From a virus, in the IMG/VR virus record IMGVR_UViG_3300049893_001204, positions 1 to 64,000 of that record: a stretch of 64,000 nucleotides of DNA; one strand, given 5' to 3'. Position 1 is the first letter of the stretch; every line of letters starts with the position of its first letter. The notes under the pieces are model-generated. The model was not told the origin of the DNA, made no database searches, and saw only the letters and a list, made by a program, of their open reading frames with translations. The position numbers and the translations under genes were made by a program. Shown here one piece after another: positions 27,697-57,048 of the stretch.

Positions 27697-27721
27697 TGTC
27701 AAGCTGGACGTTAAACGTAGC
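27697..27721 (+). repeat. Pseudoknot family B, degenerate copy
   Basis: TGTC-AAGCTG-GACG-TTAAAC-G-TAGC. Confidence 0.45.
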
Positions 27722-34898: not shown

Positions 34899-35161
34899 TG
34901 GCATGCACTGTCCTTGCAATTGAAGAGACTACGATCAATGGATCTGATGTCACAGTTACAGCAATGGTTGAAGACATGCGTCTTCTATACCGTGCAACAT
35001 ATACAGATCCTGAGGAATGGGCTCCTGCATTATGCAGAGCTTCTTTCCAGCTGGCTGATGACGAACAGATTCCTACTGATGAAGATGGCTTCTGCCATTT
35101 CTTGTATCAGTTGGATCTTGAATGGCAACTGGTTGACACATCTGATTGGAGTTTAGACTAA
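34898..35161 (+). CDS. Acidic hypothetical protein
   Basis: ATYTDPEEWAPALC. Confidence 0.6.
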   Translation: MACTVLAIEETTINGSDVTVTAMVEDMRLLYRATYTDPEEWAPALCRASFQLADDEQIPTDEDGFCHFLYQLDLEWQLVDTSDWSLD

Positions 35162-35379
35162 TGCTTGGCTTTTCAATAGAATTCAAACGCTGGTACATTG
35201 TACTGCGTGGCCCCAGGGGTAGGGTTTACCTTGCCACTGGGTTTGCTAAGCAGTTGCCATTTTATGTATCACCAACACAAGCTGCAGCATTCGATGCTGC
35301 AGTAGATGATACACATTGTGCAATACTTGCAGATGAATGGCGTGAAGACGATAATGAAGATGAAGAAATAGAGAACTGA
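35161..35379 (+). CDS. Hypothetical protein
   Basis: TAATG coupling. Confidence 0.55.
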   Translation: MLGFSIEFKRWYIVLRGPRGRVYLATGFAKQLPFYVSPTQAAAFDAAVDDTHCAILADEWREDDNEDEEIEN

Positions 35380-35383
35380 TCAC

Positions 35384-35414
35384 ACGTCCTAGGTCATGAC
35401 GTTAAACTGACCTA
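35384..35414 (+). repeat. Pseudoknot family B, copy 1
   Basis: ACGTC-C-TAGGTCA-T-GACGT-TAAAC-TGACCTA. Confidence 0.85.
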
Positions 35415-35440
35415 CACTACAAACTCAATCCACACCAACC

Positions 35441-37189
35441 ATGCAATTCCGTCTGCCTGACAATCTGCAAACTGAGCTGCTTGCTTATGACCCAAGCCTT
35501 AAGACATTGGCTAAGCAACAGAAAGCTGCTGCTTCAGCAACTAAGAAGACAACACATCCACTTGGTAACCCATATGATTTAATCCCAGTGGATATTGTAT
35601 CTAAAGATACACTTGCTACTGCAATTGAACGTATTAATCGCATGGCTGCTAAGTTTCGTTATTATGTGTTTAATAGGTTTGAAACAATTGATAACCAACC
35701 TATACAGATTACTTATGCCATTATCTATTACTACGCACAATGTTGGTATGCAGCATGGCTTCCACCTGCTGACCAACGTGATAAGTATGTATATGGTTAT
35801 CGATATGCATTCAAGAATACTGAGGCTGCACGCAAAGCTATGTCGCATGCAGTAAAAGGTAAGATAGATCAACATCAAGAAATTAAGTATGGTCGCTCAA
35901 CCTTTTACATTTATGGTGAGACGGTTACCTTAGAGCAGATCAAGACAACACCATCAAACGAACTGCAATACGGATGGAACCTAGCTGGTGTGCCAACGTA
36001 TTACCAAAAGTCTGGTGAGATGCGACGCGCTTGTATCAATGAATTCTACAAGTCATTGTCATTGTTTATACCTACGTGGCAAGATAGCCGTGAAATCTTT
36101 GAGCGTGTTCGTAATCAACATTGCATTGCATCATTGTTGATTAGTTATTCAGACCTTAACATTTCCTATTGGGATACAGTTGACAAGAATACTTGGGTAC
36201 CATCACATGAATCATTGCTTAACTTGATTGACTACAATGTAATCTATGCAGAAAACCTGGGTTATAGCAGAGGCTATGAGTATAAAAGATTACACAAGAT
36301 CAAGCACATTATTAATACACCATTCTTTAAGAAATGGATAGAAGAACAATGTGCATTAGTTATGACGCGTATTAACGATAGTTCAATTACAGATTCAAAG
36401 CTAGTTGCTGCGCCATGGAAAACAATCATTGCTTTGTTGACTGCAATATATGGCATTCATAGTGTATGGGATGACTGTCCTATTGATTACTATCAATCAC
36501 ATATGTCTGCATTGATTGCTAGTGGTAATTGTTTTTCATACGCAAGTAACCTAGTTCAGAAGTGGTTGAAAGATAACATGCCTGTTGCATCATTCTTTAA
36601 GATAGTTGAGAAGTCATACGTTAAAGAATTAGCAGGCAATATGTATTTTGATAGAGATATTCAACATCACACGTATCGTTTGCATGAATGGCGTGACACT
36701 ATGAACATGCTAACTAATATACTTAACAAGCAAGATACATTTGATCCGCCTAGCCGCTGGCGTATTGAAGAGTTCCATGACCATGTGCAATCAACTGCAT
36801 GGAAACTAAACAATGAGAACCAATCATTACCACAAGATTTGTTTCCAACACCAATTAAGATTTCACTTGGTGAATCAACATGGACATTCTTCCAGCCCAT
36901 TGATACACATCAACTTGCAGCTTGGGGCCAGGCCGTACGTAACTGCGTTGGCTCTGCATCAGGCTATGCAGAAGGTGTACGCAAGAAGAAACATTTCATT
37001 GTACTGTGCATGATTGATAACAAGCCTGTGTTTACCATCCAGCTAGATGTCAACAATGGCGTCATGAATGTTAATCAAATTAAGGGGGTATCCAACACAT
37101 CACTTAAACCTGAACAACAAGAATTGTATACAACTGCATTCAGTCAGGCATTGAAAGCCAGGGATGCTGAGCTAGCATCTAAGAGCTGA
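35441..37189 (+). CDS. PcfJ-like domain protein
   Basis: C-terminal EFHD...L..WGQAVRNCVG...Y...FTIQL...QIKG. Confidence 0.7.
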   Translation: MQFRLPDNLQTELLAYDPSLKTLAKQQKAAASATKKTTHPLGNPYDLIPVDIVSKDTLATAIERINRMAAKFRYYVFNRFETIDNQPIQITYAIIYYYAQCWYAAWLPPADQRDKYVYGYRYAFKNTEAARKAMSHAVKGKIDQHQEIKYGRSTFYIYGETVTLEQIKTTPSNELQYGWNLAGVPTYYQKSGEMRRACINEFYKSLSLFIPTWQDSREIFERVRNQHCIASLLISYSDLNISYWDTVDKNTWVPSHESLLNLIDYNVIYAENLGYSRGYEYKRLHKIKHIINTPFFKKWIEEQCALVMTRINDSSITDSKLVAAPWKTIIALLTAIYGIHSVWDDCPIDYYQSHMSALIASGNCFSYASNLVQKWLKDNMPVASFFKIVEKSYVKELAGNMYFDRDIQHHTYRLHEWRDTMNMLTNILNKQDTFDPPSRWRIEEFHDHVQSTAWKLNNENQSLPQDLFPTPIKISLGESTWTFFQPIDTHQLAAWGQAVRNCVGSASGYAEGVRKKKHFIVLCMIDNKPVFTIQLDVNNGVMNVNQIKGVSNTSLKPEQQELYTTAFSQALKARDAELASKS

Positions 37190-37237
37190 AGCCACAGCAA
37201 GGCCATCGTATGCTTGGCATAGGTGGCCTTTTCTTTC

Positions 37238-37477
37238 ATGCCTGACTACACTGATGAACAGCTGCTTGCCATGGCAATGGCAAACATTGGTGAATACATT
37301 CATGATCACTCACCACACTATGTACTGATTGAAGATCCTCGTAATGAGGATGACTATGATACATGGGATTATGGTACTGAGCCATTACCTCATGATCACA
37401 CTTGGCATTCAACTGCAATCACAGTTGATGTAAGTCCAAGTGATGCCGGCGTAGCCCAATCGGAAGAAGGCAAGTGA
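37238..37477 (+). CDS. Small acidic hypothetical protein (3' end overlaps tRNA-Leu)
   Basis: MPDYTDEQLLAMAM... Confidence 0.5.
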   Translation: MPDYTDEQLLAMAMANIGEYIHDHSPHYVLIEDPRNEDDYDTWDYGTEPLPHDHTWHSTAITVDVSPSDAGVAQSEEGK

Positions 37478-37519
37478 CTTAAAATCACTCAAGTACGAGT
37501 TCGAATCTCGTCGCCGGCA
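37445..37519 (+). tRNA. tRNA-Leu(UAA), short variable loop
   Basis: GCCGGCG/CGCCGGC acceptor, AGTGA-CTTAAAA-TCACT anticodon arm, ACGAG-TTCGAAT-CTCGT T arm, A73. Confidence 0.9.
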
Positions 37520-37531
37520 GTCTTTCTTTTT

Positions 37532-38038
37532 ATGTTTATGAGCCAAGCTAAAGCTGCTTTAATACAAGCTTATGAAAAAGGTTATCGAGTTAAAGATAAC
37601 GTTGTTTATGGGATTGTTAAAAAGCAACCATTAAAACTCAGTTGCTCTAAGTCTGGCTATCTATTTTTTAATGTAAAGTTTGGTTCAAAAACAGTTAAAG
37701 TATTTCTGCATCGTTTAGTTGCATATGAAAAGTATCAAGACAAATTGCTTGAGCCGGGTATCTTGGTTCGACATTTAAACGGCAATAGCAAAGATAATTC
37801 ATTTGGAAATATTTGCATTGGAACTCAAACTGAAAACATGTTAGATAGAAGTCCGGAAGAACGTTTGAATCATGCTATTAAGGCATCTAGTTCTATACGT
37901 AAATTTACAAATGAGAAAGTAAATCAAATTAAACTTGACCATTCAAATGGTTTAGGTTATAAAGCTTTAATGGAAAAGTATGGCATTACTTCTAAAGGAA
38001 CCTTGCATTATATTCTTACTCATGAATATGTAACGTAA
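37532..38038 (+). CDS. HNH homing endonuclease
   Basis: SGY...VFLHRLVAY...VRHLNGNSKDN..N...GT..EN; AT-rich, next to a tRNA. Confidence 0.85.
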   Translation: MFMSQAKAALIQAYEKGYRVKDNVVYGIVKKQPLKLSCSKSGYLFFNVKFGSKTVKVFLHRLVAYEKYQDKLLEPGILVRHLNGNSKDNSFGNICIGTQTENMLDRSPEERLNHAIKASSSIRKFTNEKVNQIKLDHSNGLGYKALMEKYGITSKGTLHYILTHEYVT

Positions 38039-38041
38039 ACA

Positions 38042-38069
38042 CTGGGCATCCTTATGGTGTAAGTCCCAG
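38042..38069 (+). repeat. Structured element family A, copy 7
   Basis: CTGGG-CAT-CC-TTAT-GG-TGTAAGT-CCCAG. Confidence 0.85.
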
Positions 38070-38098
38070 CCACCAACCCACACAGCAACTTCAACATC

Positions 38099-38461
38099 AT
38101 GTCAATTTTTGCTTGCTTTAAGTACATCATTCCTGAGTTCCATGCCTTCAGTGATGAAGACAAGCGCTACAACGTAGGTGCGACATGGACTGCACAAGAT
38201 GGACTTAAGGATTACCACAACATTGAGTTGCGGTACGTCCACAACTCAGAACGTCTTGCGCTCCAAGGTGATCCACAACCTGATGGCAGCTGGCGTTATG
38301 TAGAACCCAATGGCAATGTCCATACCATCTCAGCTGATCGAGCTAAACACTTTATGGAGCAGACACAGTTGCATGCCACCATCATGGTTGAGATGCTAGA
38401 CAAGCTTAAGGAATCTGGTACAGGGCAGCCGCCCATTGACACTAGTGTCCAGCCTGCTTAA
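38099..38461 (+). CDS. Hypothetical protein
   Basis: 120 aa. Confidence 0.6.
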   Translation: MSIFACFKYIIPEFHAFSDEDKRYNVGATWTAQDGLKDYHNIELRYVHNSERLALQGDPQPDGSWRYVEPNGNVHTISADRAKHFMEQTQLHATIMVEMLDKLKESGTGQPPIDTSVQPA

Positions 38462-38482
38462 GCTACACTTGAACTGCTGACA

Positions 38483-38514
38483 GATCCCCGGCGCAAGCTG
38501 GGGTCTTTTCTTTT
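38483..38514 (+). terminator. Intrinsic terminator
   Basis: CCCCGGC-GCAA-GCTGGGG-TCTTTTCTTTT. Confidence 0.75.
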
Positions 38515-38579
38515 GATGGACACATTGCTAATCATTTTTATTATCTGTGGTATTTCATTTATTGTTGTTTCTGTAGTTT

Positions 38580-38930
38580 ATGACTGACCCAAACGAAGAA
38601 ACTCATCAAGGAGTTAGACCAATGACTGACATCACCCCACCGCCGGAGCTACTGGATAAGTGGGACAACTTACCAATAAGTACCCAGGAAATCTTTGTAA
38701 TTGCCGTCCAATGGGGCGCCAACCAGGAATTGGAGGCGTGCTGTGAGTGGCTTGACGATTACCTCTTGGCTCCTAAGTCAACTCAGCTTCGCGCCGCCCG
38801 CCGCCCCAAGCCACCGAGCTTGAAGGAGCAAAGCCTTGCCCTGATTGATCTCATCCAAGGCAACAAGAAATCCTGGGACCTCAGAGACTTGGATGTTGTC
38901 CGCCACGCACTGGAGCAACTCGATGCCTGA
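38580..38930 (+). CDS. Cyanophage hypothetical protein
   Basis: ITPPPEL...ELEACCEWL...LRAARRPKPPSLKEQ. Confidence 0.6.
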   Translation: MTDPNEETHQGVRPMTDITPPPELLDKWDNLPISTQEIFVIAVQWGANQELEACCEWLDDYLLAPKSTQLRAARRPKPPSLKEQSLALIDLIQGNKKSWDLRDLDVVRHALEQLDA

Positions 38931-39195
38931 CCTCTCCCCCGCCGCGCAAGCAGTGTTGGATGCCTTTGAGCGGGCTCGTGATGCCGCGCTTGATGAGGAC
39001 GACATGCTTGGTCTTGCCGCCGCCCTTATTGCGCTAGCGGATCAGGTGGTGCCGCACCAGTCAGATCCACCCAGTGGCGATGGTGAACCATGGCCTCGCG
39101 GCTACGCACTTCTTAGCGACGGATGGTGGGAACAGCGCCAAATGACACGCGCCGAGATCCTCGCCATTGCCGCCGAGCTGGAGGGTGAGCAATGA
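38923..39195 (+). CDS. Cyanophage hypothetical protein
   Basis: LSPAAQAVLDA...ALADQVVP...ILAIAAELEG. Confidence 0.6.
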   Translation: MPDLSPAAQAVLDAFERARDAALDEDDMLGLAAALIALADQVVPHQSDPPSGDGEPWPRGYALLSDGWWEQRQMTRAEILAIAAELEGEQ

Positions 39196-39557
39196 CTGAC
39201 TCAATTAATTTAGACCTTGTTGATCAAGTTGTTTCTGTAATTCCTACAGAAGCGTGGCCTGTTGTTAACACTGCATTGATTAATGCCATTGTTGATAACA
39301 TGCCATCTACTGTACTGGAGCAATTAACAAATGATCCGTGTGGGTTTGATGAAGCTCAGCATATCCTTACTAACTACTACAGTAAAGATGGGTATGAACG
39401 TGAGTTAATCATTGACTCATTTAAGATCCTTGGAGATAGTTACGTTTGTAGCATCCTTGATTCTTTAGAACTTTACAAACATGTCATTCACGAAGGGACA
39501 GGTACCTCACTGCAATCAATGCAAGACGGGGAGGATGTTAGTCAAGGAATCTCGTAA
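39192..39557 (+). CDS. Hypothetical protein
   Basis: 121 aa, ATGA coupling. Confidence 0.6.
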   Translation: MTDSINLDLVDQVVSVIPTEAWPVVNTALINAIVDNMPSTVLEQLTNDPCGFDEAQHILTNYYSKDGYERELIIDSFKILGDSYVCSILDSLELYKHVIHEGTGTSLQSMQDGEDVSQGIS

Positions 39558-39852
39558 GGTTGATTCATACATGCGACGCAGGCGCATGTGTGATCATTGT
39601 GGTTATAGAGATACCACATATGAAGTACCAATCGAATTCTTTGAACAAGCTAAAGCCAATCAACAAATTGTTGCAAAGCTAACCCAGCTTGTTACTGGTA
39701 CTGCTACCCTGCAACCACTCCCACTTCAACAGGAGATCAAATGTATTAGATGTCATTTCAATAACAGAACATCATGTTCTTTTGAGTTACCTGAGTACAA
39801 CACTCAGGATGCATTTGATTGTGTTCATTTTTCTTTGCCTTATGCCAACTAA
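39481..39852 (+). CDS. NrdR-like zinc-ribbon protein lacking the ATP cone
   Basis: CxxC...VKESR...RRRRMCxxCGYRDTTYE. Confidence 0.7.
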   Translation: MSFTKGQVPHCNQCKTGRMLVKESRKVDSYMRRRRMCDHCGYRDTTYEVPIEFFEQAKANQQIVAKLTQLVTGTATLQPLPLQQEIKCIRCHFNNRTSCSFELPEYNTQDAFDCVHFSLPYAN

Positions 39853-40141
39853 AGCTAAGTTTAAATACAGCATTGGTGATCGCGTAGCTGAACGCCCCAA
39901 GCTACGTGGTGTCTTTGCACGCACTCAAGAGACACGTGATCGCATTGCGCAGCATCGTAACCAACGCTATGGCACAGTAGTTGGCTTTGATTCCAAGCGT
40001 AATGTAGATGGTCGTACCATGCAGTTCTTAGTTATTCAGTGGGATCATTTGACATCACCAACAGCTCATGCTCAGATGCGTATTTGTCCTATTGATCAGT
40101 TACAAGAACTGACGAATCAAATCATTGTGCCTGGAGAATGA
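39842..40141 (+). CDS. Hypothetical SH3-like protein
   Basis: KYSIGDRV...YGTVVG...LVIQWD. Confidence 0.5.
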   Translation: MPTKAKFKYSIGDRVAERPKLRGVFARTQETRDRIAQHRNQRYGTVVGFDSKRNVDGRTMQFLVIQWDHLTSPTAHAQMRICPIDQLQELTNQIIVPGE

Positions 40142-40833
40142 TCATGAATGTCAAGTTGATCTGGGTAACCCCCAACGCAGAGGAGCTAATTACTTATATG
40201 GCACGTGTCAGTGCCCCAAAAAATCAGGAGAATATGGAGACTGCTCCTAAGTTGTTGCGTTATTTAATTCAACATAAGCATTGGTCTCCTTATGAGATGG
40301 CTAACATGTGTGTTGAAATTAACACAACCCGTGCAATATCTGCACAGATTATTAGACATCGCTCATTTAGTTTCCAGGAGTTTAGTGCTCGCTATGCAGA
40401 TGTCAGTGAACTAGGTTCTGCTGTCATCCCACACTTGCGTAGACAAGATCATAAGAACAGACAAAATAGTATTGATGATTTAGATACAGAGATGGTTGGT
40501 AGTTATTACCGACGTATCAGTCAACTTTTTGAGGATGCTGAACATCTCTATCGTGAGATGATAAGCACTGGTGTTGCTAAAGAGTGCGCCAGGAACATTC
40601 TGCCAATGGCAGCTCAGACTAGAATCTATATGCAAGGATCCTTGCGGTCATGGATCCATTACTTACAGCTACGTTGTGACAACGGAACTCAAGCAGAACA
40701 CCGACAAATTGCAGAAGAAATCAAACGAATCTTCTGTCAACAATTCCCAGTCACTGGAGAAGTTGCCTTCTCAGGAGAAGACAACACAACGCAACCACCT
40801 GAGGAACAACGCATTAGTCGTTTGTTTTTCTAA
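40138..40833 (+). CDS. thyX: Flavin-dependent thymidylate synthase
   Basis: HWSPYE, RHRSFSFQEFSARY, GVAKECARNILP, LRSW...Q.EHR. Confidence 0.95.
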   Translation: MIMNVKLIWVTPNAEELITYMARVSAPKNQENMETAPKLLRYLIQHKHWSPYEMANMCVEINTTRAISAQIIRHRSFSFQEFSARYADVSELGSAVIPHLRRQDHKNRQNSIDDLDTEMVGSYYRRISQLFEDAEHLYREMISTGVAKECARNILPMAAQTRIYMQGSLRSWIHYLQLRCDNGTQAEHRQIAEEIKRIFCQQFPVTGEVAFSGEDNTTQPPEEQRISRLFF

Positions 40834-40958
40834 GAGGGTGTGACCTCACGGTGATCAAGCCGCAAGGTCATTCGTTTACTAGCCAGGGGAAGCAGCAGAA
40901 ACCCTGACTCCCTCGGGACTGACGCTGCTCTTCTGCGTCCCACAACAGTCTACTTGAC

Positions 40959-40985
40959 ACGTCCTAAGCATGACGTTAAACTGCT
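40959..40985 (+). repeat. Pseudoknot family B, copy 2
   Basis: ACGTC-CTA-AGCA-T-GACGT-TAAAC-TGCT. Confidence 0.8.
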
Positions 40986-41008
40986 CCACACCAACTCACT
41001 ACAACATC

Positions 41009-41797
41009 ATGAAACTTCTTAAGTTTTCTACTGGGAACGGCAAGCTCAAGAATCGTTTGATCTTTTCGTTGCCAGCGGGTTATGCATGCCCACATGCTGG
41101 TGTATGCAAGACCTTTGCAGATCGTGTCACAGGTAACATTACTGACTTACCTCAGCACACTGGTACTACAGCGGATGAGTTCCGCTGCTTTGCTGCAATG
41201 GCAGAGACTAGGCCAACCGTACGTGATGCACGTTGGCATAACTGGGATCTGCTGCGTAATACCATCCATCTCAATGGCAATCAGTCAATGCTGATGCGTG
41301 ATCTGATTGACATGTCGTTGTTGATGGAACCAGAGAAGGAACTTGTACGCATCCATGAGAGTGGTGACTTCTGGATTGAAACCTACATGCGTGCATGGGC
41401 AATGGTTGCAGCACAGCGACCTAAGCAGAAGTTCTATGCCTATACCAAGTCTCTTGGCATGTGGTTGAACTTACGTGATCAGCTGCCATCTAACTTCTAT
41501 CTCACTGCATCTTACGGTGGTACGCTTGACTATCTCTTGCCAAAGTATCCAGATGTGTTCAAGCGTATTGCTTATGTGGTATACACAGAAGATGAAGCTA
41601 AAGAGCGTGGTCTAGAGATTGACCATGACGACAGCCATTGCTTTGGCAACAAGCCGTTTGCACTCCTTGTGCATGGCAGCCAACGCGCTGGATCAGACGC
41701 CATGAAAGCTTTGTCTCAACGTAAGAAAGACAAGGGATTCGTTGGGTACGGTAAAACATTCCAAAAAGAATCCGTACCTATTAACGTCTTTGCTTAG
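41009..41797 (+). CDS. Gene product 88 (GP88)-like protein
   Basis: GNGKL...FSLPAG.ACP.A..C...CFA...VRIHESGDF...FYAYTKS. Confidence 0.7.
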   Translation: MKLLKFSTGNGKLKNRLIFSLPAGYACPHAGVCKTFADRVTGNITDLPQHTGTTADEFRCFAAMAETRPTVRDARWHNWDLLRNTIHLNGNQSMLMRDLIDMSLLMEPEKELVRIHESGDFWIETYMRAWAMVAAQRPKQKFYAYTKSLGMWLNLRDQLPSNFYLTASYGGTLDYLLPKYPDVFKRIAYVVYTEDEAKERGLEIDHDDSHCFGNKPFALLVHGSQRAGSDAMKALSQRKKDKGFVGYGKTFQKESVPINVFA

Positions 41798-41833
41798 ACC
41801 CGCTACTATCAGTTAGTTATACCTAACTGATTA

Positions 41834-42061
41834 ATGGCTTATCTGCTGGCATGTTGGAAGTCTGGTACACCATATGGTGTCCGGGCTTCCACTGATTCTT
41901 TTGAGTTGATTCCGTTAGACTCGGAAACAGCATTAGGAAAAGTCTTTAGTCATCCGTATCGCTCAGGTGCACAAAAGATTTTGTCCTGGATCCAGCAGAA
42001 TGATCATGTCCTCAATCGTGAAGAACTCTCAATTCAAGATTGCGCCAGGTTCCAGCGATGA
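41834..42061 (+). CDS. Hypothetical protein
   Basis: 75 aa, TACTAT upstream. Confidence 0.55.
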   Translation: MAYLLACWKSGTPYGVRASTDSFELIPLDSETALGKVFSHPYRSGAQKILSWIQQNDHVLNREELSIQDCARFQR

Positions 42062-43862
42062 ACGTTGGCTCATCTTTGATTTGGAATCGGATGGGTTGTA
42101 TGACGTTGTATCCGTTATCCATTGCATTGTCATCTATGACATTGGAGCCAACCAAACTTTTACTTATGGGCCTGATTGCATTGCTATTGCTCTTGATCAT
42201 TTGGCAACCGCTGATGTTTTGATAGGGCACAACATCATCTTTTATGATCTGCCTGTTCTGCAAAAGTTGCATTCATTTGTCTGCAAAAGTCGGATTGTAG
42301 ACACACTTATTTGCACTCGATTGATCTGGCCTAAGGAGGTACTCTATGACCTTGACACAGAACAATATCCGCAGGTTCCAGAAAAGAACCGTGGATCCGC
42401 ATCACTTAAGGCTTGGGGATGGCGCTTGGCCAATCACAAGATCGACTTCAAAGACTTCAGTGAATACAGCCAAGAGATGTTGGACTACTGTGTCCAGGAT
42501 GTTGTTGTCACCCTTAGCCTTTGGCAATTCATTGTCAAACAAAACTATCCGCAAGCAGCTTACAAACTTGAACACGACTTTGCTATTGCCATTAACAAAC
42601 AAATTAGAGCAGGCATTCCTTTTGACGTTGATGCATCTCTTGATCTTGTGGATGGTCTTAGAACAAAACAAAAAGAACTCGAAGTTCATTTAAAAAAAAT
42701 CTTTCCACCTATCAAACATGAGACTACCTTTATCCCCAAGGTTAACAACTCCACGAAGGGTTACGTTAAAGGCCAAGCTTTTACTAAAGTACATTGGGAG
42801 GAATTTAATCCTGGCTCTCGTGAGCAGATTGTACAAAGGCTACAAGCAAAGTACGGATGGACCCCTGAAACAACTACGGAGAAAGGTAATCCAATTCTTA
42901 ATGACGATATACTTGCGGCACTTCCATATCCCGAGGCAATTCAGTTATCCGAATACATGTTGGTTAAGAAGCGTCTTGGCCAAATAGCAGATGGTCGTAA
43001 CGCATGGCTCAAGCTTGTTAACAATGACACTGGTCGTATGCATGGTGATCTAGTAACCAATGGTTGCATCACAGGTCGTTGTGCTCACCGCAACCCAAAC
43101 ATGGGTCAAGTACCAGCAAGCTATTCACCTTATGGTCATGAGTGCCGTAGTTTGTTCCATGCCCCGCAAGGTTGGGATCTTATTGGTATTGATGCCAAAG
43201 CATTGGAGCTGCGTTGTTTAGCTGGTTATCTTGCCCTCTGGGATGATGGTGAGTATGCATCAATGGTTATTAATCCAGAAGTAGATATCCATAGCTATAA
43301 CCAAGAGCAATTTGGTGTAGCAACCAGGGACATAAGCAAACGTCTTTTATATGGGCTTCTATACGGGTGTGGTGCAATTAAAGCAGGTACTATCATCAAT
43401 GCAGAAGAGAAAGATCCTGAGGTACTTGCAACTTTAGGGCGTAATGCTATCGATGGTTTTATGCGTGGTGTACCAGCACTGAAAAAGCTTAAACAAAAGA
43501 TTGAAGAGACTATTGGAACTCGTGGTTATCTTATTGGTCTTGATGGTCGCACTCTACATTGTCGTTCCGCTTTTAAAGGATTGAATGTTTTGTTGCAATC
43601 CAGTGGTGCAATCATCATGAAACAAGTTGTAATTAATATGCACAACAACATTGAACAAAACCTGGCTTTACCACATGGTCAGGAGTGGGAACAAATGCTT
43701 ATGATCCATGACGAAGTCCAGTTGGCATGCAAGCCTGAGCACACAGAACACATCCGTGAACAAGCATTGCAAGCCTTCCCCCAAGCAGGTGCGTTCTTTG
43801 GATTTAAATGTACAATTGAAGGCGACTCCCGCGTTGGCAAGACGTGGGCTGATACACATTAA
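42000..43862 (+). CDS. polA: DNA polymerase family A (T7-like) with 3'-5' exonuclease
   Basis: FDLESDG, GHNIIFYD, YCVQDV exonuclease motifs; TGR...PN, DAKALELR, R..SK.LLYG.LYG, IHDEVQ. Confidence 0.95.
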   Translation: MIMSSIVKNSQFKIAPGSSDERWLIFDLESDGLYDVVSVIHCIVIYDIGANQTFTYGPDCIAIALDHLATADVLIGHNIIFYDLPVLQKLHSFVCKSRIVDTLICTRLIWPKEVLYDLDTEQYPQVPEKNRGSASLKAWGWRLANHKIDFKDFSEYSQEMLDYCVQDVVVTLSLWQFIVKQNYPQAAYKLEHDFAIAINKQIRAGIPFDVDASLDLVDGLRTKQKELEVHLKKIFPPIKHETTFIPKVNNSTKGYVKGQAFTKVHWEEFNPGSREQIVQRLQAKYGWTPETTTEKGNPILNDDILAALPYPEAIQLSEYMLVKKRLGQIADGRNAWLKLVNNDTGRMHGDLVTNGCITGRCAHRNPNMGQVPASYSPYGHECRSLFHAPQGWDLIGIDAKALELRCLAGYLALWDDGEYASMVINPEVDIHSYNQEQFGVATRDISKRLLYGLLYGCGAIKAGTIINAEEKDPEVLATLGRNAIDGFMRGVPALKKLKQKIEETIGTRGYLIGLDGRTLHCRSAFKGLNVLLQSSGAIIMKQVVINMHNNIEQNLALPHGQEWEQMLMIHDEVQLACKPEHTEHIREQALQAFPQAGAFFGFKCTIEGDSRVGKTWADTH

Positions 43863-43864
43863 CC

Positions 43865-44020
43865 ATGTACTTACTTGTAAAATTACTTAACGAATTACTT
43901 ACTCTTGGTGTTTATTCAACATTGATTAAATGTGCATTTGACTTTACTTGGTATCAAGGATTTGCTCTTGGTTATTTGTTTTGGATTTTACGTGATGCCT
44001 GTAAAAATCCCAACAAATGA
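43865..44020 (+). CDS. Small membrane protein (51 aa)
   Basis: MYLLVKLLNELLTLG...; fills the gap before element B3. Confidence 0.45.
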   Translation: MYLLVKLLNELLTLGVYSTLIKCAFDFTWYQGFALGYLFWILRDACKNPNK

Positions 44021-44025
44021 TTATT

Positions 44026-44052
44026 CGTCCCAGGTATGACGTTAAACTGCCT
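44026..44052 (+). repeat. Pseudoknot family B, copy 3
   Basis: CGTC-CC-AGGTA-T-GACG-TTAAAC-TGCCT. Confidence 0.8.
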
Positions 44053-44073
44053 TAACACCTTGCATCTGTACTC

Positions 44074-44889
44074 ATGAACTTTGCTTCTGTCTGCGCTCAA
44101 ACTAACGAAACTCCACGGGAAGTATTTATTAGTGCAACAGCTACAGCTATCCGCTGTTCGGTAACATTGCCTCCTGTTGGCAAGAAAGCTCCTACTGTAC
44201 TTGAACTCAATGTATATGGAAAAAACGCAGAGCGTTTTGTCCAAGCACCCAAAGGATCCCTCATCTACATTCACGGCGCCAAGCTACGTCACGATCTTGA
44301 CACCAAAACGTTTTTGTTACATGGAGGAATTATTGCTCCGGTTACGGAACAATTCCCGATCTTTAATACAATCATCTTGAGTGGTCGTTGTATTAAAGAC
44401 ATTGACCACGATGACGCACGTGCATTTCGTACAACACCAGATGGTTTGATGATTTGCAATCAAACACTATCTGTTAGCACTGGTCGCAATCAAGCTGATC
44501 TCTTCAACTTCTTTGCGATGAACAATGCACAGGACAAACTTAACAATGCCGAATTGTTAGTTAACTTCACACGCAAGGGAACTGGTCTAACCATTAACGG
44601 TCGCCTTGTAACAGATACATGGATTGACCGTGAAACAAAAGAAAAGAAATCTCAGACCAAGATCCAGCTGGTTAATATGACCCTGGCTCCCAAGGGATCT
44701 GTTGAACCGCAGCCAATTACACCGCAAACCACCGTTGCCTCTACTGAGAATGTTGCCACGCTTTGGGGTGGCCGCACTGCTGACGAAACTCCTGATCCCT
44801 GGAACAAAGCCTCAGGTGGTGGTCTGCCTGATCTCCCTGGACACTATGGCCCTGCTCCAACTGAAATCGATGAAGAGGTTCCGTTCTGA
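44074..44889 (+). CDS. ssb: Single-stranded DNA-binding protein, tandem OB folds
   Basis: Two SSB-like repeats (VYGKNAE..KGSLIYI; NTIILSGR..RKGTGLTINGRL.TDTW.D) and an EEVPF tail. Confidence 0.8.
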   Translation: MNFASVCAQTNETPREVFISATATAIRCSVTLPPVGKKAPTVLELNVYGKNAERFVQAPKGSLIYIHGAKLRHDLDTKTFLLHGGIIAPVTEQFPIFNTIILSGRCIKDIDHDDARAFRTTPDGLMICNQTLSVSTGRNQADLFNFFAMNNAQDKLNNAELLVNFTRKGTGLTINGRLVTDTWIDRETKEKKSQTKIQLVNMTLAPKGSVEPQPITPQTTVASTENVATLWGGRTADETPDPWNKASGGGLPDLPGHYGPAPTEIDEEVPF

Positions 44890-45209
44890 TGTCTGATCAC
44901 ACTCCTGTCAAGCCACTGAAAAGTGAGTTTTGTTTTCTACATGAAGACTCAGATGGTACTGAAACCATTGTTAAGTTTGACCAGGTTTTTACCGACAAGA
45001 TCATTGAGAACTTCATTCAGTTCTTAAGGGGTTGCGGTCACCATGACATTTGTATTTACACTGCATTGCAATTTTTTGCAGAAGAATACTTTCAATCCAT
45101 GGAGTCTATGGATCTTGTAGAGATCCATGAAGATAACAAAGAAATGTTAAAAGACCTTAGAAAGAAAAAGAAGAAGGGAGTTAAGCAAGAAGCTGATGAC
45201 TTAAACTGA
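44889..45209 (+). CDS. Hypothetical protein
   Basis: IIENFIQFLRGCG. Confidence 0.6.
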   Translation: MSDHTPVKPLKSEFCFLHEDSDGTETIVKFDQVFTDKIIENFIQFLRGCGHHDICIYTALQFFAEEYFQSMESMDLVEIHEDNKEMLKDLRKKKKKGVKQEADDLN

Positions 45210-45214
45210 TGGCC

Positions 45215-45242
45215 CGTCCTGGGATGACGTTAAACTCATCCA
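45215..45242 (+). repeat. Pseudoknot family B, copy 4
   Basis: CGTC-C-TGGGA-T-GACG-TTAAAC-TCATCCA, second stem bulged. Confidence 0.7.
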
Positions 45243-45263
45243 CTAACCCACTCGGAACTGACC

Positions 45264-46367
45264 ATGACTTCAACTCCGATTGACATCTTGAGTGATTCCT
45301 GGATGGATGAAATCCAACCTGAAACAACTTCTGCACCACTCCCTGCTTCTACCAACAAAATGACCATGAAGAAAACCTCTTCCCTTGCCAAGCGTGACAT
45401 TGCTTCTTTCCAAATTTTCCAATCTAAGGAATTTGTTTCTGGGTACCAGAACCTCGTCACAATTCAACCTCTTAACAAGTCCAAGACACGAGGTTGGTTC
45501 GTGCGGAAGTCAGACCTGGACACTTGCGGATGGAGTGCCACTGAAAGTGACTTTGCTACAGGTTCAGTTATCTGGAACTACAAGCAAACTTTTGGCATGG
45601 CTCCCAACACTTCAGTGGAAGAAGGACTCAATTTTACTGAGCCTCGTATTCAAATCCTTCTACGTTCTCCCCTCATGGTTGAGGAAACCACAGGGATGAG
45701 GCAAACGATTGGTACGTTTGATAACCCTGAGGTTAAGGAATTGTTTGAAGCCGATAAGGTTGCATCTGATCTTGCCGGCAGCAAAGGTGAGCTGTACAAG
45801 CGCAAGTACAGTGTGCGGACCAAATACCTGATCTACCTGCTGACCAAAGACAACAAGCGTGCCCATAATATTCCTATGGTGCTGACGCTGAAAGGTCTTA
45901 ATGGTACAGATGTATCTGATAAGGTACGTATCTATGAGCGTGAGATGTCTAAGTGTCTGAGCAAAGCTCTGGATACTGAGATTCCTCTGAGCTTCAATGA
46001 GAAGTTCTATGCCACTACAGTGTTCTCTCCTGTGTTGGCTAATGAGATGCGTGGTGCTAACAACGTAGAGATCTGCGCTGTTGAATCATTTGACATTCCT
46101 GATTACAGCACACAAGAAGATGCGATTGAATCTTTGAATCGTTTGTCGATTCCAGATGAAGATCGTGAATCAACTTGGAAGTACCAGGAACTGTTCTTTG
46201 ATTACATCAACATCCATGCCAAGCAGGATGCACAGAAACTGGGTGGTGCCTATGGTATGAAAGATGGTGTAGAAGTATTGCCTGCTTCTCGTACCACAGA
46301 TGCCATTGAGGTTAAGGCATTGCCTTCTCGTAACCCCATCACTGGTGAGGATTCTGATCTGAGCTAA
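45264..46367 (+). CDS. Replication/recombination-region protein (DUF5895-like?)
   Basis: 367 aa, near ssb and gp157; RTKYLIYLL..DNK..H.IP.VLTLKG. Confidence 0.45.
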   Translation: MTSTPIDILSDSWMDEIQPETTSAPLPASTNKMTMKKTSSLAKRDIASFQIFQSKEFVSGYQNLVTIQPLNKSKTRGWFVRKSDLDTCGWSATESDFATGSVIWNYKQTFGMAPNTSVEEGLNFTEPRIQILLRSPLMVEETTGMRQTIGTFDNPEVKELFEADKVASDLAGSKGELYKRKYSVRTKYLIYLLTKDNKRAHNIPMVLTLKGLNGTDVSDKVRIYEREMSKCLSKALDTEIPLSFNEKFYATTVFSPVLANEMRGANNVEICAVESFDIPDYSTQEDAIESLNRLSIPDEDRESTWKYQELFFDYINIHAKQDAQKLGGAYGMKDGVEVLPASRTTDAIEVKALPSRNPITGEDSDLS

Positions 46368-46632
46368 CACTAACAGAAGGATTAGCTAGGTCATTCGGAT
46401 TGATAATCACTTGATTAAAGATCCGAATGTCCTTTACTAAACCTTTAATAATTCCTTGACGTTGAGTGGCAATCCTCGCCAAGAGGGTTGCCATCTCTTT
46501 TAGTTCACTAACGGAATTACATTCAGCAATGGAGCGTTTGATCTTTTCTTCCCAGAACTTATCATCAATTGATGGTTCAATTTCAAACGCATGCAATGGA
46601 GTGTACTCAAGTTCTTGTGTAGATTCTTCCAT
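46339..46632 (-). CDS. nblA: NblA-like phycobilisome degradation adaptor
   Basis: PSIDDKF..KIKRSI..SVSELKEM..LLARI..RQGIIKGLVK aligns by eye with the NblA helix-loop-helix; own TAGAAT at 46655-46660. Confidence 0.55.
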   Translation of the reverse strand: MEESTQELEYTPLHAFEIEPSIDDKFWEEKIKRSIAECNSVSELKEMATLLARIATQRQGIIKGLVKDIRIFNQVIINPNDLANPSVSVSSDQNPHQ

Positions 46633-46684
46633 TGTTTATGTAATTGTTAGTGACATTCTACTCAAAAACAATCAGAGATTCAAA

Positions 46685-46888
46685 ATGAAACCTGAAGAAA
46701 AAGCTGCATTACAGACAGGTGCCATTGCTGCTGGGCTAGGAAGCCTAGTAGCTCTGGTCGTAAGCAGCCCCATTACCTGGGGTGTGCTGGCCTACGGCAC
46801 CTATCGAATCAGTCGTCAGGCGTACCAGCGGACCAAGTACCGTGGTAAGCTGAAGCCTATCCCTGAGGAAGACACCTGGGGGATCTGA
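46685..46888 (+). CDS. Small membrane protein
   Basis: MKPEEKAAL... followed by a hydrophobic segment. Confidence 0.55.
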   Translation: MKPEEKAALQTGAIAAGLGSLVALVVSSPITWGVLAYGTYRISRQAYQRTKYRGKLKPIPEEDTWGI

Positions 46889-46924
46889 TTCCAACTCAAC
46901 TCAAACCACAACACACTATTAGCC

Positions 46925-47866
46925 ATGACAACTGCTCAACTTACAGAACTCAATGAAGGTCAGAAACTTATCTACACACGCACGAATATTGGCCGTGCGT
47001 TCCATGGGTTTGATGACACCGAAATTGCTGGCATTTATTTGCGAGATGATGATTGTTGCGTGGTGCGCCGCGATGGTAGCCAGCAGACTTACAACAGGGA
47101 ACTGATAAGAAAAGCTTATATATGCCACAAGGGTAGGCTTAAGGATTTCTTTTCATATTTAGGTCCTAACTATAGGGGTCCTAGCATATGGCGTAACAAC
47201 GCCTATGTTCTTTTCAAAGGATGGAACTATGTCCATGCACTCGGACACACAACACCCAACGCAAAGTTACAAAACCACTGGGCAGACAAATTTATACACC
47301 TATCAGATCAACACAAACTCACAACCCTCCTTCAATCTGACCAAACAGACCTGGGGCATCTGGTTGCGCCGGACGGGTTGCGGTCTACAGATCGGCCCAT
47401 TGATCTGGACTCTGAGTTGGTGGAAGACGAGAGTACCCTTCCGACATGTGAACCTTGGTGTTCATGCGGGTCCTTTCAGCGTCAGCTCCACAATCTTCCT
47501 CTGCTCAGACAAGAAGCAGAAGGAATCATGCCCTGGTGCATCCACCTGAGTTGGTTTATTAAGTACAGGCAACTGCTATGCAAGCGCACAGAGGTACGTA
47601 ATGCAGCACCATCTGGTACACCAGATAAATGCGTGGCTTGGTTTTATGCTCCACCGGTAGATGCAACCAGTGACGGTAAGTTTGTATTGCTGCATACCAA
47701 GCATGGGTCACAGGCACCGCTAACACACTGGCGTACCTACAAGAAAGATGAAGTCTTTACGCAAGCTGATGCATGGGCTTTGTTTGACAGTATGCTAGAT
47801 GCTGGTTATGTGCCATACCCTGGCACTTCTTTGCCACAACTTAAGACTGCACTCAAGAAACAATGA
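46925..47866 (+). CDS. SWIM zinc-finger protein
   Basis: WCSCGSF...PWCIH. Confidence 0.6.
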   Translation: MTTAQLTELNEGQKLIYTRTNIGRAFHGFDDTEIAGIYLRDDDCCVVRRDGSQQTYNRELIRKAYICHKGRLKDFFSYLGPNYRGPSIWRNNAYVLFKGWNYVHALGHTTPNAKLQNHWADKFIHLSDQHKLTTLLQSDQTDLGHLVAPDGLRSTDRPIDLDSELVEDESTLPTCEPWCSCGSFQRQLHNLPLLRQEAEGIMPWCIHLSWFIKYRQLLCKRTEVRNAAPSGTPDKCVAWFYAPPVDATSDGKFVLLHTKHGSQAPLTHWRTYKKDEVFTQADAWALFDSMLDAGYVPYPGTSLPQLKTALKKQ

Positions 47867-48030
47867 CACCAACCCAACGTTATGATCTGGACATTCCAGA
47901 AGACACCCATTGGGCACTTGTTAAGTTAGCTGCAGAACTTAAGATGCATCATGAAGACTATGCACAAAACATTCTGATTGGTCATGTCGAACACGAATTG
48001 GATCGACAAGCTGCAGCTAACAACGATTGA
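47863..48030 (+). CDS. Small ribbon-helix-helix-like protein (55 aa)
   Basis: RYDLDIPEDTHWALVKLAAE...YAQNIL; ATGA coupling. Confidence 0.45.
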   Translation: MTPTQRYDLDIPEDTHWALVKLAAELKMHHEDYAQNILIGHVEHELDRQAAANND

Positions 48031-48184
48031 AGAACCTGATGGGTCTTTGACAATTCAGATTGACTGGGATCCAGAAGATCCGGAGTTAGCTCTTTGGACT
48101 TCATGGGGTGAGGAAAAACAAAAACAACTTTTCCTCGATGCTTTAACCAAAACTCTTGACAAGGAAATTGACAATGACTATTGA
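47984..48184 (+). CDS. Hypothetical protein
   Basis: EEPDGSLTIQIDWD. Confidence 0.55.
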   Translation: MSNTNWIDKLQLTTIEEPDGSLTIQIDWDPEDPELALWTSWGEEKQKQLFLDALTKTLDKEIDNDY

Positions 48185-48512
48185 TCAGTATGGCTTGAAT
48201 GATCCAGAGTATACCAAGCTGTTCCTTAAGAATGCAGATCAACTAATTGATCTGTACTATAGGTTTAGCAATAAGCTAACGGCTGGTTACCAAATGGGTG
48301 TGCCAGAGGATGTTAAGCGTCAGCTCTTTGATGATGTTGTTTACAGAACCAATGACTGCGCTCGTGAGAAACATAAAGAAGAACATCCTGAAAGCATTGA
48401 ACTATATGTAAGTAATACAGAGTTGAAGAAAGAGATTGATTCTCTTAAAACAATTCTTCTTAATTTAGTTGAAGTATTGATTGCAGCCGAAGAAAATAAA
48501 CCGATGGAATAA
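48174..48512 (+). CDS. Hypothetical protein
   Basis: 112 aa. Confidence 0.55.
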   Translation: MTIDQYGLNDPEYTKLFLKNADQLIDLYYRFSNKLTAGYQMGVPEDVKRQLFDDVVYRTNDCAREKHKEEHPESIELYVSNTELKKEIDSLKTILLNLVEVLIAAEENKPME

Positions 48513-48516
48513 TAGT

Positions 48517-48545
48517 GCGTCCTGGTCATGACGTTAAACTGACCA
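48517..48545 (+). repeat. Pseudoknot family B, copy 5
   Basis: GCGTC-C-TGGTCA-T-GACGT-TAAAC-TGACCA. Confidence 0.85.
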
Positions 48546-48571
48546 CAACCCATCTCAATTAAATCAAGTTC

Positions 48572-48691
48572 ATGTTTGAATCCATCCTTGGTGCCATTGC
48601 TCCAGTGCTTAAAGATTTGCTGTGGGCTGCAGCTGGTATGCTGCTGTCCTACTGCATCAACAAACTCCAAGCTCACTTCAACCTCATCTGA
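48572..48691 (+). CDS. Small hydrophobic peptide (39 aa)
   Basis: MFESILGAIAPVLKDLLWAAAGMLL...; directly follows element B5. Confidence 0.5.
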   Translation: MFESILGAIAPVLKDLLWAAAGMLLSYCINKLQAHFNLI

Positions 48692-48694
48692 GTC

Positions 48695-49393
48695 ATGACA
48701 CAAATTACTTCAACAAAACTCAATACGCTAAACATCATTCAGCTCTATGAGCACTATGCTGCTCTGGAACGCTCTCTTCCTTTGCTCACTCCTCAGTCCC
48801 AGGAGATGGCAAAAGCAGAGCTGGAAATTTGTGCTAACCTCCGATCAGAAAAGATTGATCGCATCCATTACGCAATGGCATCCCATGAAGATGCTATTGA
48901 ACGCATCAAGAAAGAATCAGAGATGATTGCGGATTCCAAACGCCATCACGAATCTCAAATCAAGTCTCTCAAGGGATTGCTAAGCTGGTTACGTCGCGCT
49001 CTGCCCAACGACTCCAATAAAATTACAGGGCGCAACTATCAGTTCACCTTAGTCAAGAAGAAGGAGTTAACCGTTGAAGTCACGTCGGACCCTAACCTTT
49101 GGGACACTGAACAAAAATCTAAATTCTGCATCGAACAAGAAACAACCACAACTAGAAGAACCGTGGTACGTTCAATATCAGGAGAAGTCCTATCCGACAG
49201 GACAGAACCTAAAACCAAACTTGAAATCCTCCCTAACGTCGATGCAATCCGTAACGCCTACCAAACCGGGCAACAACTACCACAAGGAGTCAAAGTTGCA
49301 CAAGAATATTCCATCCGTACACGACGACTTTTCTCCAACCGGTTGGAGATGGATGCATCCGAATATGCAGGAGAACTTCTACCAGAAGCTTGA
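48695..49393 (+). CDS. Siphovirus Gp157-like protein
   Basis: EKID...IKKE...coiled coil, KITG..YQFTL, DAIR.A...G..LP.GV. Confidence 0.75.
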   Translation: MTQITSTKLNTLNIIQLYEHYAALERSLPLLTPQSQEMAKAELEICANLRSEKIDRIHYAMASHEDAIERIKKESEMIADSKRHHESQIKSLKGLLSWLRRALPNDSNKITGRNYQFTLVKKKELTVEVTSDPNLWDTEQKSKFCIEQETTTTRRTVVRSISGEVLSDRTEPKTKLEILPNVDAIRNAYQTGQQLPQGVKVAQEYSIRTRRLFSNRLEMDASEYAGELLPEA

Positions 49394-56175: not shown

Positions 56176-56247
56176 AGCTGGATAACAGATTTGAACTGTT
56201 GGCCTGAGATTTACAAAATCCCTGCTCTACCACTGAGCTAATCCAGC
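56176..56247 (-). tRNA. tRNA-Thr(UGU)
   Basis: GCTGGAT/ATCCAGC acceptor, GGGAT-TTTGTAA-ATCTC anticodon arm, TTCAAAT T loop. Confidence 0.9.
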
Positions 56248-56250
56248 ACA

Positions 56251-56324: not shown

Positions 56325-56341
56325 AACTTAAATAGTCTACA

Positions 56342-56994: not shown

Positions 56995-57048
56995 AGTGAC
57001 CCCCAGGTTTGTGCATCGTTGAGAGGCATAGGGGGTATTGCTGTACAC

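Follow-up and report, generated by a model that had tools for sequence, protein, structure and literature searches.

The subject here is a small RNA pseudoknot, five copies of which lie between genes in the IMG/VR virus record IMGVR_UViG_3300049893_001204. The window, that is, the whole stretch of DNA analysed, is the first 64 kb of this 77.7-kb phage contig, which is about 98% complete. What kind of phage is it? Among named phages the sole nucleotide match is to Synechococcus phage S-EIVl, which comes from a high-arctic lake (80.6% identity over 846 bp), and the genome carrying the knots is a cyanophage, a distant relative of S-EIVl. Its genes run leftward in 1-26.6 kb and rightward from 26.7 to about 56 kb, and every copy of the knot is found within the rightward block, on the coding (+) strand. 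This block encodes a family A DNA polymerase, a single-strand DNA-binding protein (SSB), and GP88, PcfJ-like, DUF5895 and gp157/Gam-like proteins. The genes behind the five copies (Table 1) are those already named in an earlier note on this DNA, which had been made from its letters: PcfJ-like, GP88, SSB, the open reading frame (ORF) at 45264, which encodes DUF5895, and a small peptide followed by gp157/Gam-like. The 39-aa ORF for the small peptide is conserved in related contigs, and its S-EIVl orthologue is an annotated coding sequence, AHV82166.1.

Five knots in the rightward gene block

The copies were located by a covariance model (R1) built from 76 non-identical copies of the window and related viral contigs. 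Over the whole 77.7-kb genome this model finds exactly five full copies (32-47 bits, E 7e-9 to 2e-5), which are 27-30 nt long, all on the + strand and co-oriented with the genes; beyond them no position of the genome scores above 11 bits. On its + strand the window contains the core string GACGTTAAAC at exactly six places, and with one mismatch allowed its count is reached by none of 100 shuffles. The five copies listed in the earlier note are all present, their coordinates having been correct to within 1 nt, and the paired strands quoted for the second stem can all be read in the sequence (TAGGTCA/TGACCTA, AGCA/TGCT, TGGTCA/TGACCA, and AGGTA/TGCCT, the last with a U.G wobble). The knot does stand ahead of a start codon as was claimed, although the distance measures 19-26 nt instead of 21-26 nt. 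As to the degenerate copy placed at 27697, the 10-mer and a 3-bp stem, GUC-N6-GAC, are there, but the consensus loop and the second stem are not; this site was rejected as a folded copy, at the low score given in Table 1, and may be a relic of one. A further 10-mer stands bare on the - strand close to genome position 76913 and likewise does not count as a folded copy.

Table 1. Knots, associated elements and downstream genes, with positions in the window; P1 and P2 are the stems called S1 and S2 in the text
Feature	Position	Strand	Details
Copy 1	35385..35414	+	45.8 bits, E 1e-8; P1 CGUC/GACG, 9-nt loop, 7-bp P2; 5 nt past TGA of 77-aa ORF 35146-35379; 26 nt upstream of ATG 35441
Copy 2	40960..40986	+	45.8 bits; P2 4 bp, AGCA/UGCU; 19 nt upstream of ATG 41006
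Copy 3	44026..44053	+	46.6 bits, E 6.6e-9; P2 AGGUA/UGCCU with U.G wobble; 5 nt past TGA of 51-aa ORF 43865-44020; 20 nt upstream of ATG 44074
Copy 4, atypical	45215..45243	+	32.0 bits, E 1.7e-5; 7-nt loop; P2 4 bp, in a shifted register only; 5 nt past TGA of ORF 44889-45209; ~20 nt upstream of ATG 45264
Copy 5	48518..48545	+	46.4 bits, E 7.5e-9; P2 UGGUCA/UGACCA, 6 bp; 5 nt past TAA of ORF 48156-48512; 26 nt upstream of ATG 48572
Doubtful relic	27697..27716	+	GUC-N6-GAC and GUUAAAC 10-mer; local match 10.7 bits, E 1.6
Structured spacer, 125 nt	40834..40959	+	precedes copy 2; minimum free energy -43.7 kcal/mol
PcfJ-like gene, 582 aa	35441..37189	+	behind copy 1; PF14284 E 2e-7
GP88-family gene	41006..41797	+	behind copy 2; PF17338 E 2.5e-41
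SSB gene	44074..44889	+	behind copy 3; PF00436 E 2.8e-9, phrog_44 E 3e-21
DUF5895 gene, 367 aa	45264..46367	+	behind copy 4; PF19247 E 1.2e-12
Hydrophobic small ORF, 39 aa, start MFESI (MFESILGAIAPVL)	48572..48691	+	behind copy 5; from translation
gp157 / Mu Gam-like gene	48695-49393	+	after the 39-aa ORF; PF05565, phrog_253
Bacterial micro-ORF loci			L129, L133, L154, L235, L238, L228, L170, L156, L197, L168, L188
Bacterial micro-ORF loci, continued			L200, L213, L220, L233, L152, L137, L161, L149, L177, L222

Copy 2 is exceptional in having no stop codon ahead of it but the 125-nt structured spacer, which probably belongs to a further structured intergenic RNA family among those listed for this genome in the earlier note. 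The second stem of copy 3 is identical at the orthologous ssb leader of five other contigs. Two good intrinsic-terminator-like hairpins are seen within the rightward block, at 38486-38503 and 46466-46494 (+), which would put the five knots on at least three separate transcription units.

Fold of the knot and its kinship with coremin

From 5′ to 3′, the element consists of a stem S1 of 4 bp (NGUC/GACN′), a loop L1 of a single C, a stem S2 of 5-7 bp, a junction of one base (U) and a loop L3, UUAAAC; S2 is made by pairing of the hairpin loop with the bases after AAAC. A scan of IMG/VR with the pattern CGTCC-N(4-10)-TGACGTTAAAC matched at least 116 loci, and among the matches listed, 63 of the 81 unique instances with an 8-nt loop have at least five contiguous S2 pairs. 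In alignment A1, pairing holds in 94.7% of the S2 cells, to be compared with 17-52% when the partners are slid, and double-sided changes fill 70 cells against 27.5 ± 4.4 in shuffled alignments, not one of 500 shuffles reaching 70. S1 had been fixed in the initial search pattern; its variation was read from a model search of 42 related loci, which gave 97 matches, or 92 distinct copies. Since the covariance model contained no S1 pairs, the counts of S1 pairs are unbiased by the model. Among the 92 distinct copies the outer S1 pair is C-G in 74, A-U in five, U-A in five, G-C in two and U-G in one, and it is unpaired in two; this variation is real covariation.

The rest of the knot is uniform in some positions and free in others. 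The GUC/GAC part of S1 is constant in 89-91 of the distinct copies, the C8-G pair closing the loop in 91 of 91, and the loop always begins with C. At loop position 2, 67 copies have U (58), C (four), A (three) or G (two), whereas the penultimate loop A is kept in 64 of the 67 and the final loop U is kept, loops being 7-9 nt long. In the spacer, AAACU is constant while the first two bases vary (GC, UA, GG, CU). Position 20, which pairs with the loop, is for that reason mostly G (54 of 67 copies, with A in eight). G.U pairs number 0.79 per copy and A.C only 0.13, so that it is the sense-strand RNA which folds, and not the antisense strand or a DNA cruciform. The compact H-type pseudoknot with a covarying second stem, which the earlier note had proposed, is thus upheld by covariation among the related copies: the element is a sense-strand RNA folding as a classical H-type pseudoknot.

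Could the conserved letters be a signal in double-stranded DNA instead, with ATGACGTTAAACT as the -10 region of a promoter or as an operator? In favour of this, TAAACT conforms to TAnnnT, and 17 nt upstream of it copy 2 shows TTGACA without a mismatch. In a promoter scan, however, copy 2 was the only copy with a sigma-70-like match across the knot (TTGACA-17-TAAACT), leaving a -35 match in merely one of five, and promoter-like matches in the region were 27, below the mean of the shuffles (34.6 ± 6.4). Four copies stand 5 nt after a stop codon, inside operons, and the motif occurs in RNA-virus genomes too. The covariation of both stems, the excess of G.U over A.C, a CGTC-GACG distance which varies from 7 to 9 nt and the missing -35 elements make a DNA-level signal hardly credible. 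With respect to the idea of a phage RNA polymerase promoter, it is to be added that no RNA polymerase was found among the ten largest ORFs scanned.

Does the knot belong to a known family? Comparison with ToxI, preQ1 and STAXI had been suggested in the earlier note, but a cmscan of 35000-49000 against Rfam 15 returned no family at any copy, even at E ≤ 10, and at gathering scores none was returned at any copy over the whole window. A likeness to P1 and linker of the pistol ribozyme was not borne out, there being no Rfam match. A second class of the viral scan, CGUCC-GNRA-UGACGUUAAAC-UA, is found in 2-9-kb contigs which encode picorna-like polyproteins with dicistrovirus-type capsids, or a tombus-like RNA-dependent RNA polymerase (RdRp) and coat proteins. 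To judge from its sequence, this short class corresponds to the ordinary hexaloop coremin, which is already known. Canonical hexaloop coremin also stands in tandem arrays, with a period of 22-27 nt, in the intergenic region of five dicistro-like contigs.

Coremin, GUCCGAAGACGUUAAACUAC followed by a second hairpin (hp2), is the Xrn1-resistant RNA called xrRNA-C of many eukaryotic RNA viruses, including beny-, cucumo-, umbra-, hypo-, chryso-, picorna-like and tombus-like viruses; it needs a first hairpin (hp1) of 3-5 bp with a C-G closing pair, a YGAD or YGNNAD loop, and hp2 immediately downstream (PMC6546385, PMC10520033). In its spacer UUAAACUAC, U13U14 can be changed while A16-A20 are essential (PMC6546385). 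It blocks Xrn1 one nucleotide 5′ of hp1 without any protein, it blocks scanning ribosomes, and in vitro an 8-nt loop is tolerated for GRV coremin (PMC10520033). Dilweg et al. suspected a loop-spacer pseudoknot in coremin and selected Watson-Crick-type variants with a 3-bp S2 (PMC10321173). They found that coremin drives -1 frameshifting, in a screen done in E. coli. In vitro, neither the BNYVV-type nor the 3-bp Watson-Crick-type coremin resists Xrn1 without hp2, a strict requirement, but frameshifting is still stimulated when hp2 is lost (PMC10321173). By the time of the 2023 papers, the structure of coremin was still unsolved (PMC10520033, PMC10321173).

The phage knot shares with coremin the (N)GUC/GAC(N′) hairpin with its C-G closing pair, the first loop C, the penultimate loop A and the spacer UUAAACU up to U19; position 20, within the essential A16-A20 of coremin, is mostly G in the knot. 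The hairpin stem covaries, and the same positions tolerate or refuse change: among coremin-specific bases, natural variants differ only in the first two spacer bases and in the outer S1 pair. Unlike coremin, the phage loop is of 7-9 nt with U or C in place of G at position 2, and the bases after AAAC pair with the loop in 5-7 Watson-Crick or wobble pairs. There is no hp2, the 19-26 nt after the knot being G-poor and barely folded, and the hp1 loop, in place of hp2, provides the helix beside the spacer. The places also differ: intervals between DNA-phage genes and bacterial leaders for the knot, untranslated or intergenic regions of eukaryotic RNA viruses for coremin. Also comparable is xrRNA-WCC (Hit1 and Hit2 selected in vitro, and Sanxia picorna-like virus 5), which has in common with the knot an antiparallel loop-spacer stem and the A(loop)-U19 pair and which, without hp2, keeps its ribosome-directed activity, frameshifting, but not its Xrn1 resistance (PMC10321173). 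Its S2, however, has 3 bp (6-20, 7-19, 8-18), includes C18 and needs G at loop position 5, while S2 of the phage knot starts from U19 and goes downstream for 5-7 bp, C18 staying unpaired opposite an unpaired U, position 5 being C, and hp2 being absent. On the strength of these shared bases, we regard the phage knot as a Watson-Crick-extended form of coremin / xrRNA-C lacking hp2, for which nuclease resistance is predicted; it would be a natural, much longer version of Watson-Crick-type coremin in a slightly different register.

Small frameshifter knots of the BWYV P1-P2 type (~28 nt) resemble the phage knot in size, in a short G-C-rich S1, in a 1-nt L1 and in an A-rich L3 suited to minor-groove triples. 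Their conserved bases are different, though, the phage knots follow a stop codon without a slippery site, and BWYV-type knots do not stop Xrn1 (PMC10321173). The pseudoknotted form lacking hp2 in DNA phages and bacteria is new to Rfam and to the literature searched: no paper linking xrRNA or coremin with phages came up in the search, and the coremin papers (PMC6546385, PMC10520033, PMC10321173) mention no phage or bacterium.

Spread, stop codons and micro-ORFs

In cultured S-EIVl the knot is present six times, in the orthologous leaders of ssb, GP88, DUF5895, the small peptide and PcfJ-like and in one further leader; outer S1 pairs are compensated in some of these copies (U-A, A-U), and several have the same 5-nt distance from a stop codon as copies 1, 3, 4 and 5 of Table 1. 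Nostoc phage NMeng1 (OQ540924.1; L251, 1497-1606), a T7-like autographivirus cyanophage unrelated to S-EIVl, has one full copy of 44.6 bits, which ends exactly where an annotated pseudo-tRNA starts, and Moorella phage MTATph1 has two copies. A Ruminococcus prophage locus, near-identical in one further record (L147) and 12 viral contigs, also carries a knot; it lies about 12 nt past an intrinsic-terminator-like hairpin and about 60 nt before a gene led by a Shine-Dalgarno (SD) sequence, and its S2, UUGAUA/UGUCAG, includes two G.U pairs. In bacteria, one genome per species (596 Gb) was searched on two strands with a pattern of 16 fixed bases and five gap lengths. Because chance predicts more than 1000 raw matches in 596 Gb, only matches with S2 were counted: 37 of 125 have at least five S2 pairs in register, where about one is expected by chance. 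These 37 copies come from Bacillota, Omnitrophota, Planctomycetota, Nitrospirota, Zixibacteriota, Thermodesulfobacteriota, Chloroflexota, Saccharibacteria and Actinomycetota, and the genes behind bacterial knots encode Rrf2-family regulators, a hemerythrin-like protein, USP and a flavodoxin-like protein. All four pattern matches in Gammaproteobacteria are without S2.

This spread bears on two proposals. In the leader of T4 gene 32, a pseudoknot serves translational autoregulation by gp32, and the earlier note had offered an SSB-sensing regulon for the present phage. The knot would then be a translational operator, serving the phage SSB or some other protein of the phage and nucleating cooperative binding on the unstructured leader, and the five genes would be repressed together. 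Indeed, the order of knot, unstructured leader and AUG before an ssb gene resembles the T4 leader, ssb is one of the five genes, and all five are in DNA metabolism. However, the two leaders have no sequence similarity, and the knot is not restricted to ssb leaders or to phages with a cognate SSB: it precedes unrelated genes in unrelated phages and bacteria, the Rrf2, hemerythrin, USP and flavodoxin-like genes and the pseudo-tRNA among them, and its short form occurs in eukaryotic RNA viruses which have no such SSB. Moreover, the constant bases coincide with those for protein-free stalling of Xrn1, and G-poor CA-rich leaders are general in the phage. The spread of the element therefore makes an SSB regulon quite improbable.

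The second proposal is a processing signal, the knot marking the place at which an endonuclease of host or phage would divide polycistronic RNA into pieces of gene size, after the fashion of RNase III, RNase P-like or tRNA-punctuation processing, or else a site of self-cleavage. The knot does sit at gene boundaries, the NMeng1 copy abuts a tRNA-like gene, and other structured intergenic elements are present in the window, e.g., 40834-40959. On the other hand, the closest characterised relative blocks and is not cut (PMC6546385), Rfam gave no match to a ribozyme or processing family, and the constant bases are those needed for the roadblock fold of coremin. We thus hold a processing signal to be unlikely.

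It is to be noted that the knot keeps a fixed place relative to stop codons. The first S1 base comes exactly 5 nt after the upstream stop codon in four of the five copies (1, 3, 4 and 5). When the upstream 30-mers of all related copies were clustered at 60% identity, 82 distinct contexts remained, and the spacer between stop codon and knot is 5 nt in 30 of them, 6 nt in eight and 7 nt in five, although its sequence is not conserved. Only two contexts have less than 5 nt (one of 4 nt and one overlapping the stop codon); 14 have no upstream ORF end within 60 nt, and in the others the spacer is longer. On the other side of the knot, the leader to the AUG is 19-26 nt long, contains 0-15% G, folds with only -1 to -4 kcal/mol (-8.9 in copy 4) and has no SD sequence; in most copies the start codon is 25-34 nt after AAAC. 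The knot is thus part of a fixed intercistronic cassette: stop codon, 5 nt, knot, G-poor leader and AUG. CA-rich, G-poor leaders of this kind (...CACAACACAACAACACC-ATG), with no SD sequence, precede most rightward genes following an intergenic gap, for example those starting on the + strand at 29174, 30452, 32221, 33028, 33450, 38099 and 46925, and an SD-like tetramer is found at only 10 of 44 ORF starts. Because such leaders serve many knot-free genes of this phage, the knot is not needed for initiation.

About 20 bacterial loci (Table 1) have a conserved micro-ORF, 19-30 codons long and with an SD sequence of its own, whose 3′ end runs into the knot; its core is (K/R)-x-(F/Y/W)-M-L-R-P-V-A-H-C-K-E-G-(C/H). 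Variation is concentrated at third codon positions, which argues that the sequence is coding. The overlap takes in the final 3-4 codons with the stop codon, as a rule the UGA within the AUGACG of the knot; sometimes the stop is 2-5 nt before S1. These loci belong to Omnitrophota, Planctomycetota, Bacillota, Nitrospirota, Zixibacteriota and Thermodesulfobacteriota. The peptide matches no Pfam or NCBIfam family and the RNA no Rfam family, and the link between a micro-ORF and a coremin-like knot appears to be new. In phages and bacteria alike, the knot is placed relative to a terminating ribosome.

Is the ribosome then the partner of the knot? With a stop codon in the A site and a 5-nt spacer, the first S1 pair is at about +12 from the first P-site base, just outside the entrance of the ribosomal helicase, so that 5 nt is the closest at which a structure can sit without being unwound by the terminating ribosome. 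Among the spacings used by frameshift stimulators, 5 nt is likewise at the lower end. As the main rival to a role in decay, therefore, the knot may be a ribosome-directed element which meets the ribosome terminating on the upstream gene and sets the translational coupling of neighbours: by stopping post-termination 70S or 30S particles from sliding (gene insulation), by holding them for re-initiation, or by slowing release at the stop codon. The sharp peak at 5 nt with almost nothing closer, a spacing range shared with stimulators of frameshifting and readthrough, and the micro-ORFs ending at UGA in the bacterial knots are consistent with this. So is the behaviour of coremin, which stalls scanning ribosomes and, in its Watson-Crick type without hp2, keeps frameshifting while losing Xrn1 resistance (PMC10321173); the phage form is one without hp2.

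An elongating ribosome, however, meets the stop codon ahead of the phage knot and so never enters it. Before the four stop codons no X XXY YYZ heptamer was seen, and the next gene is out of frame, as with TGA 35377 and ATG 35441, which leaves no recoding product; with neither slippery sites nor in-frame continuations, recoding is unlikely and was rejected. An AUG inside the knot of copies 1 and 5 opens a frame of merely four codons. In addition, the SD-less CA-rich leaders also serve knot-free genes, and the lower bound of 5 nt would be equally expected if the knot need only stay folded. All this taken together, a ribosome-directed element is possible but rather doubtful.

A bolder and still more tentative proposal, which we would not favour at present, is that the knot serves across kingdoms as a ‘stop-sign’ module, has the terminating ribosome as its real partner and, docked in phages 5 nt past the stop codon, decides the fate of ribosome and RNA at the gene boundary. 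In anaerobic bacteria, translation of the Cys/His micro-ORF (core RPVAHCKEGC, with the UGA inside the knot) would open or shut the knot and thereby control Rrf2-type redox and metal stress operons. If this is true, the xrRNA fold would underlie a riboregulator of a new class, one which senses translation.

A proposed barrier to decay from the 5′ end

The reading which we favour, and to which we give about an even chance, is that the knot is a mechanical barrier at gene boundaries against 5′-end-dependent decay, by RNase E scanning or by RNase J. On long early or middle transcripts, the knot would guard the 5′ edge of the cistron behind it, as a barrier which depends on direction. Decay begun in the upstream RNA, whether by RNase E scanning from a 5′-monophosphate end, by 5′-to-3′ exonucleolysis by RNase J, or by both, would be halted or slowed there. 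The messages for PcfJ-like, GP88, SSB, DUF5895 and the peptide with Gam-like would then keep a base-paired, protected 5′ end together with a free leader for ribosome loading. The 5-nt spacer would let the knot stay folded during translation of the upstream gene and leave no naked RNA between ribosome and knot, and in this sense the spacing rule is consistent with a barrier to decay.

How would a bacterial enzyme be stopped by such a fold? Like coremin, other xrRNAs arrest 5′-to-3′ exonucleases with no need of a protein. A flaviviral xrRNA blocks bacterial RNase J1 (PMC5760640), and blocks of this kind are thus not specific to one enzyme. RNase E scans from the 5′-monophosphate and bypasses ordinary hairpins, while H-type pseudoknots obstruct it in proportion to their coaxial base pairs (PMC9943677), which would explain the use of a knot and not of a hairpin. 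In the control genome of Synechococcus elongatus an RNase J family match was obtained, for which the output gives no standing relative to the family cut-off. Cyanobacteria possess both RNase E and RNase J.

Several points weigh against a decay barrier. The phage form is without hp2, which coremin requires for Xrn1 resistance in vitro, although the longer S2 may compensate for this; its second loop base is U or C where coremin requires G; and ordinary frameshifter pseudoknots do not stop Xrn1 (PMC10321173). With about 10 coaxial base pairs (9-11), the RNase E data predict only a modest to moderate obstacle. The sharp 5-nt rule could equally well mean that a terminating ribosome is the partner. 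As for RNase J, it is above the family cut-off in only three of five knot-bearing bacterial genomes, a comparison limited by the incompleteness of metagenome-assembled genomes (MAGs); a Zixibacteriota chromosome and an Omnitrophota MAG carry the knot and have no RNase J above that cut-off. RNase J is therefore not the universal target, and was rejected as such. Thus, from the exonuclease roadblock of the earlier note, the roadblock itself fits the evidence by way of the coremin / xrRNA-C core, whereas RNase J as its general partner does not stand.

What would a barrier to decay mean beyond this phage? To our knowledge, exoribonuclease-resistant RNAs are known only from eukaryotic RNA viruses. 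A coremin-type fold in cyanophages, other phages and many bacterial phyla would, if the reading is true, carry the RNA roadblock into prokaryotes, with RNase E or RNase J in place of Xrn1. The loop-spacer pseudoknot suspected in coremin would be displayed here in richly covarying Watson-Crick pairs, and so give a hint at a structure not yet solved; natural covariation would then fix the register of the coremin pseudoknot as the loop A with U19 and onward from there. New here are the stop-codon spacing rule, the covariation of S1, the copies in cultured phages, the precedent of RNase E scanning and the micro-ORF link, and the 5-nt rule together with the micro-ORFs gives testable ideas on the interplay of ribosomes, decay enzymes and knots. 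Bench systems are at hand in cultured S-EIVl with its six copies, Nostoc phage NMeng1 and Moorella phage MTATph1, and a portable stabiliser or insulator of 28 nt is a possible tool for cyanobacterial and Gram-positive synthetic biology.

Apart from the knots, the window holds an Rfam match to abiF RNA (RF03085) at 56999-57035 on the - strand, with 52.2 bits against a gathering score of 37, which adjoins a pair of genes for tRNA-Thr and tRNA-Pro at 56176-56325 (-).

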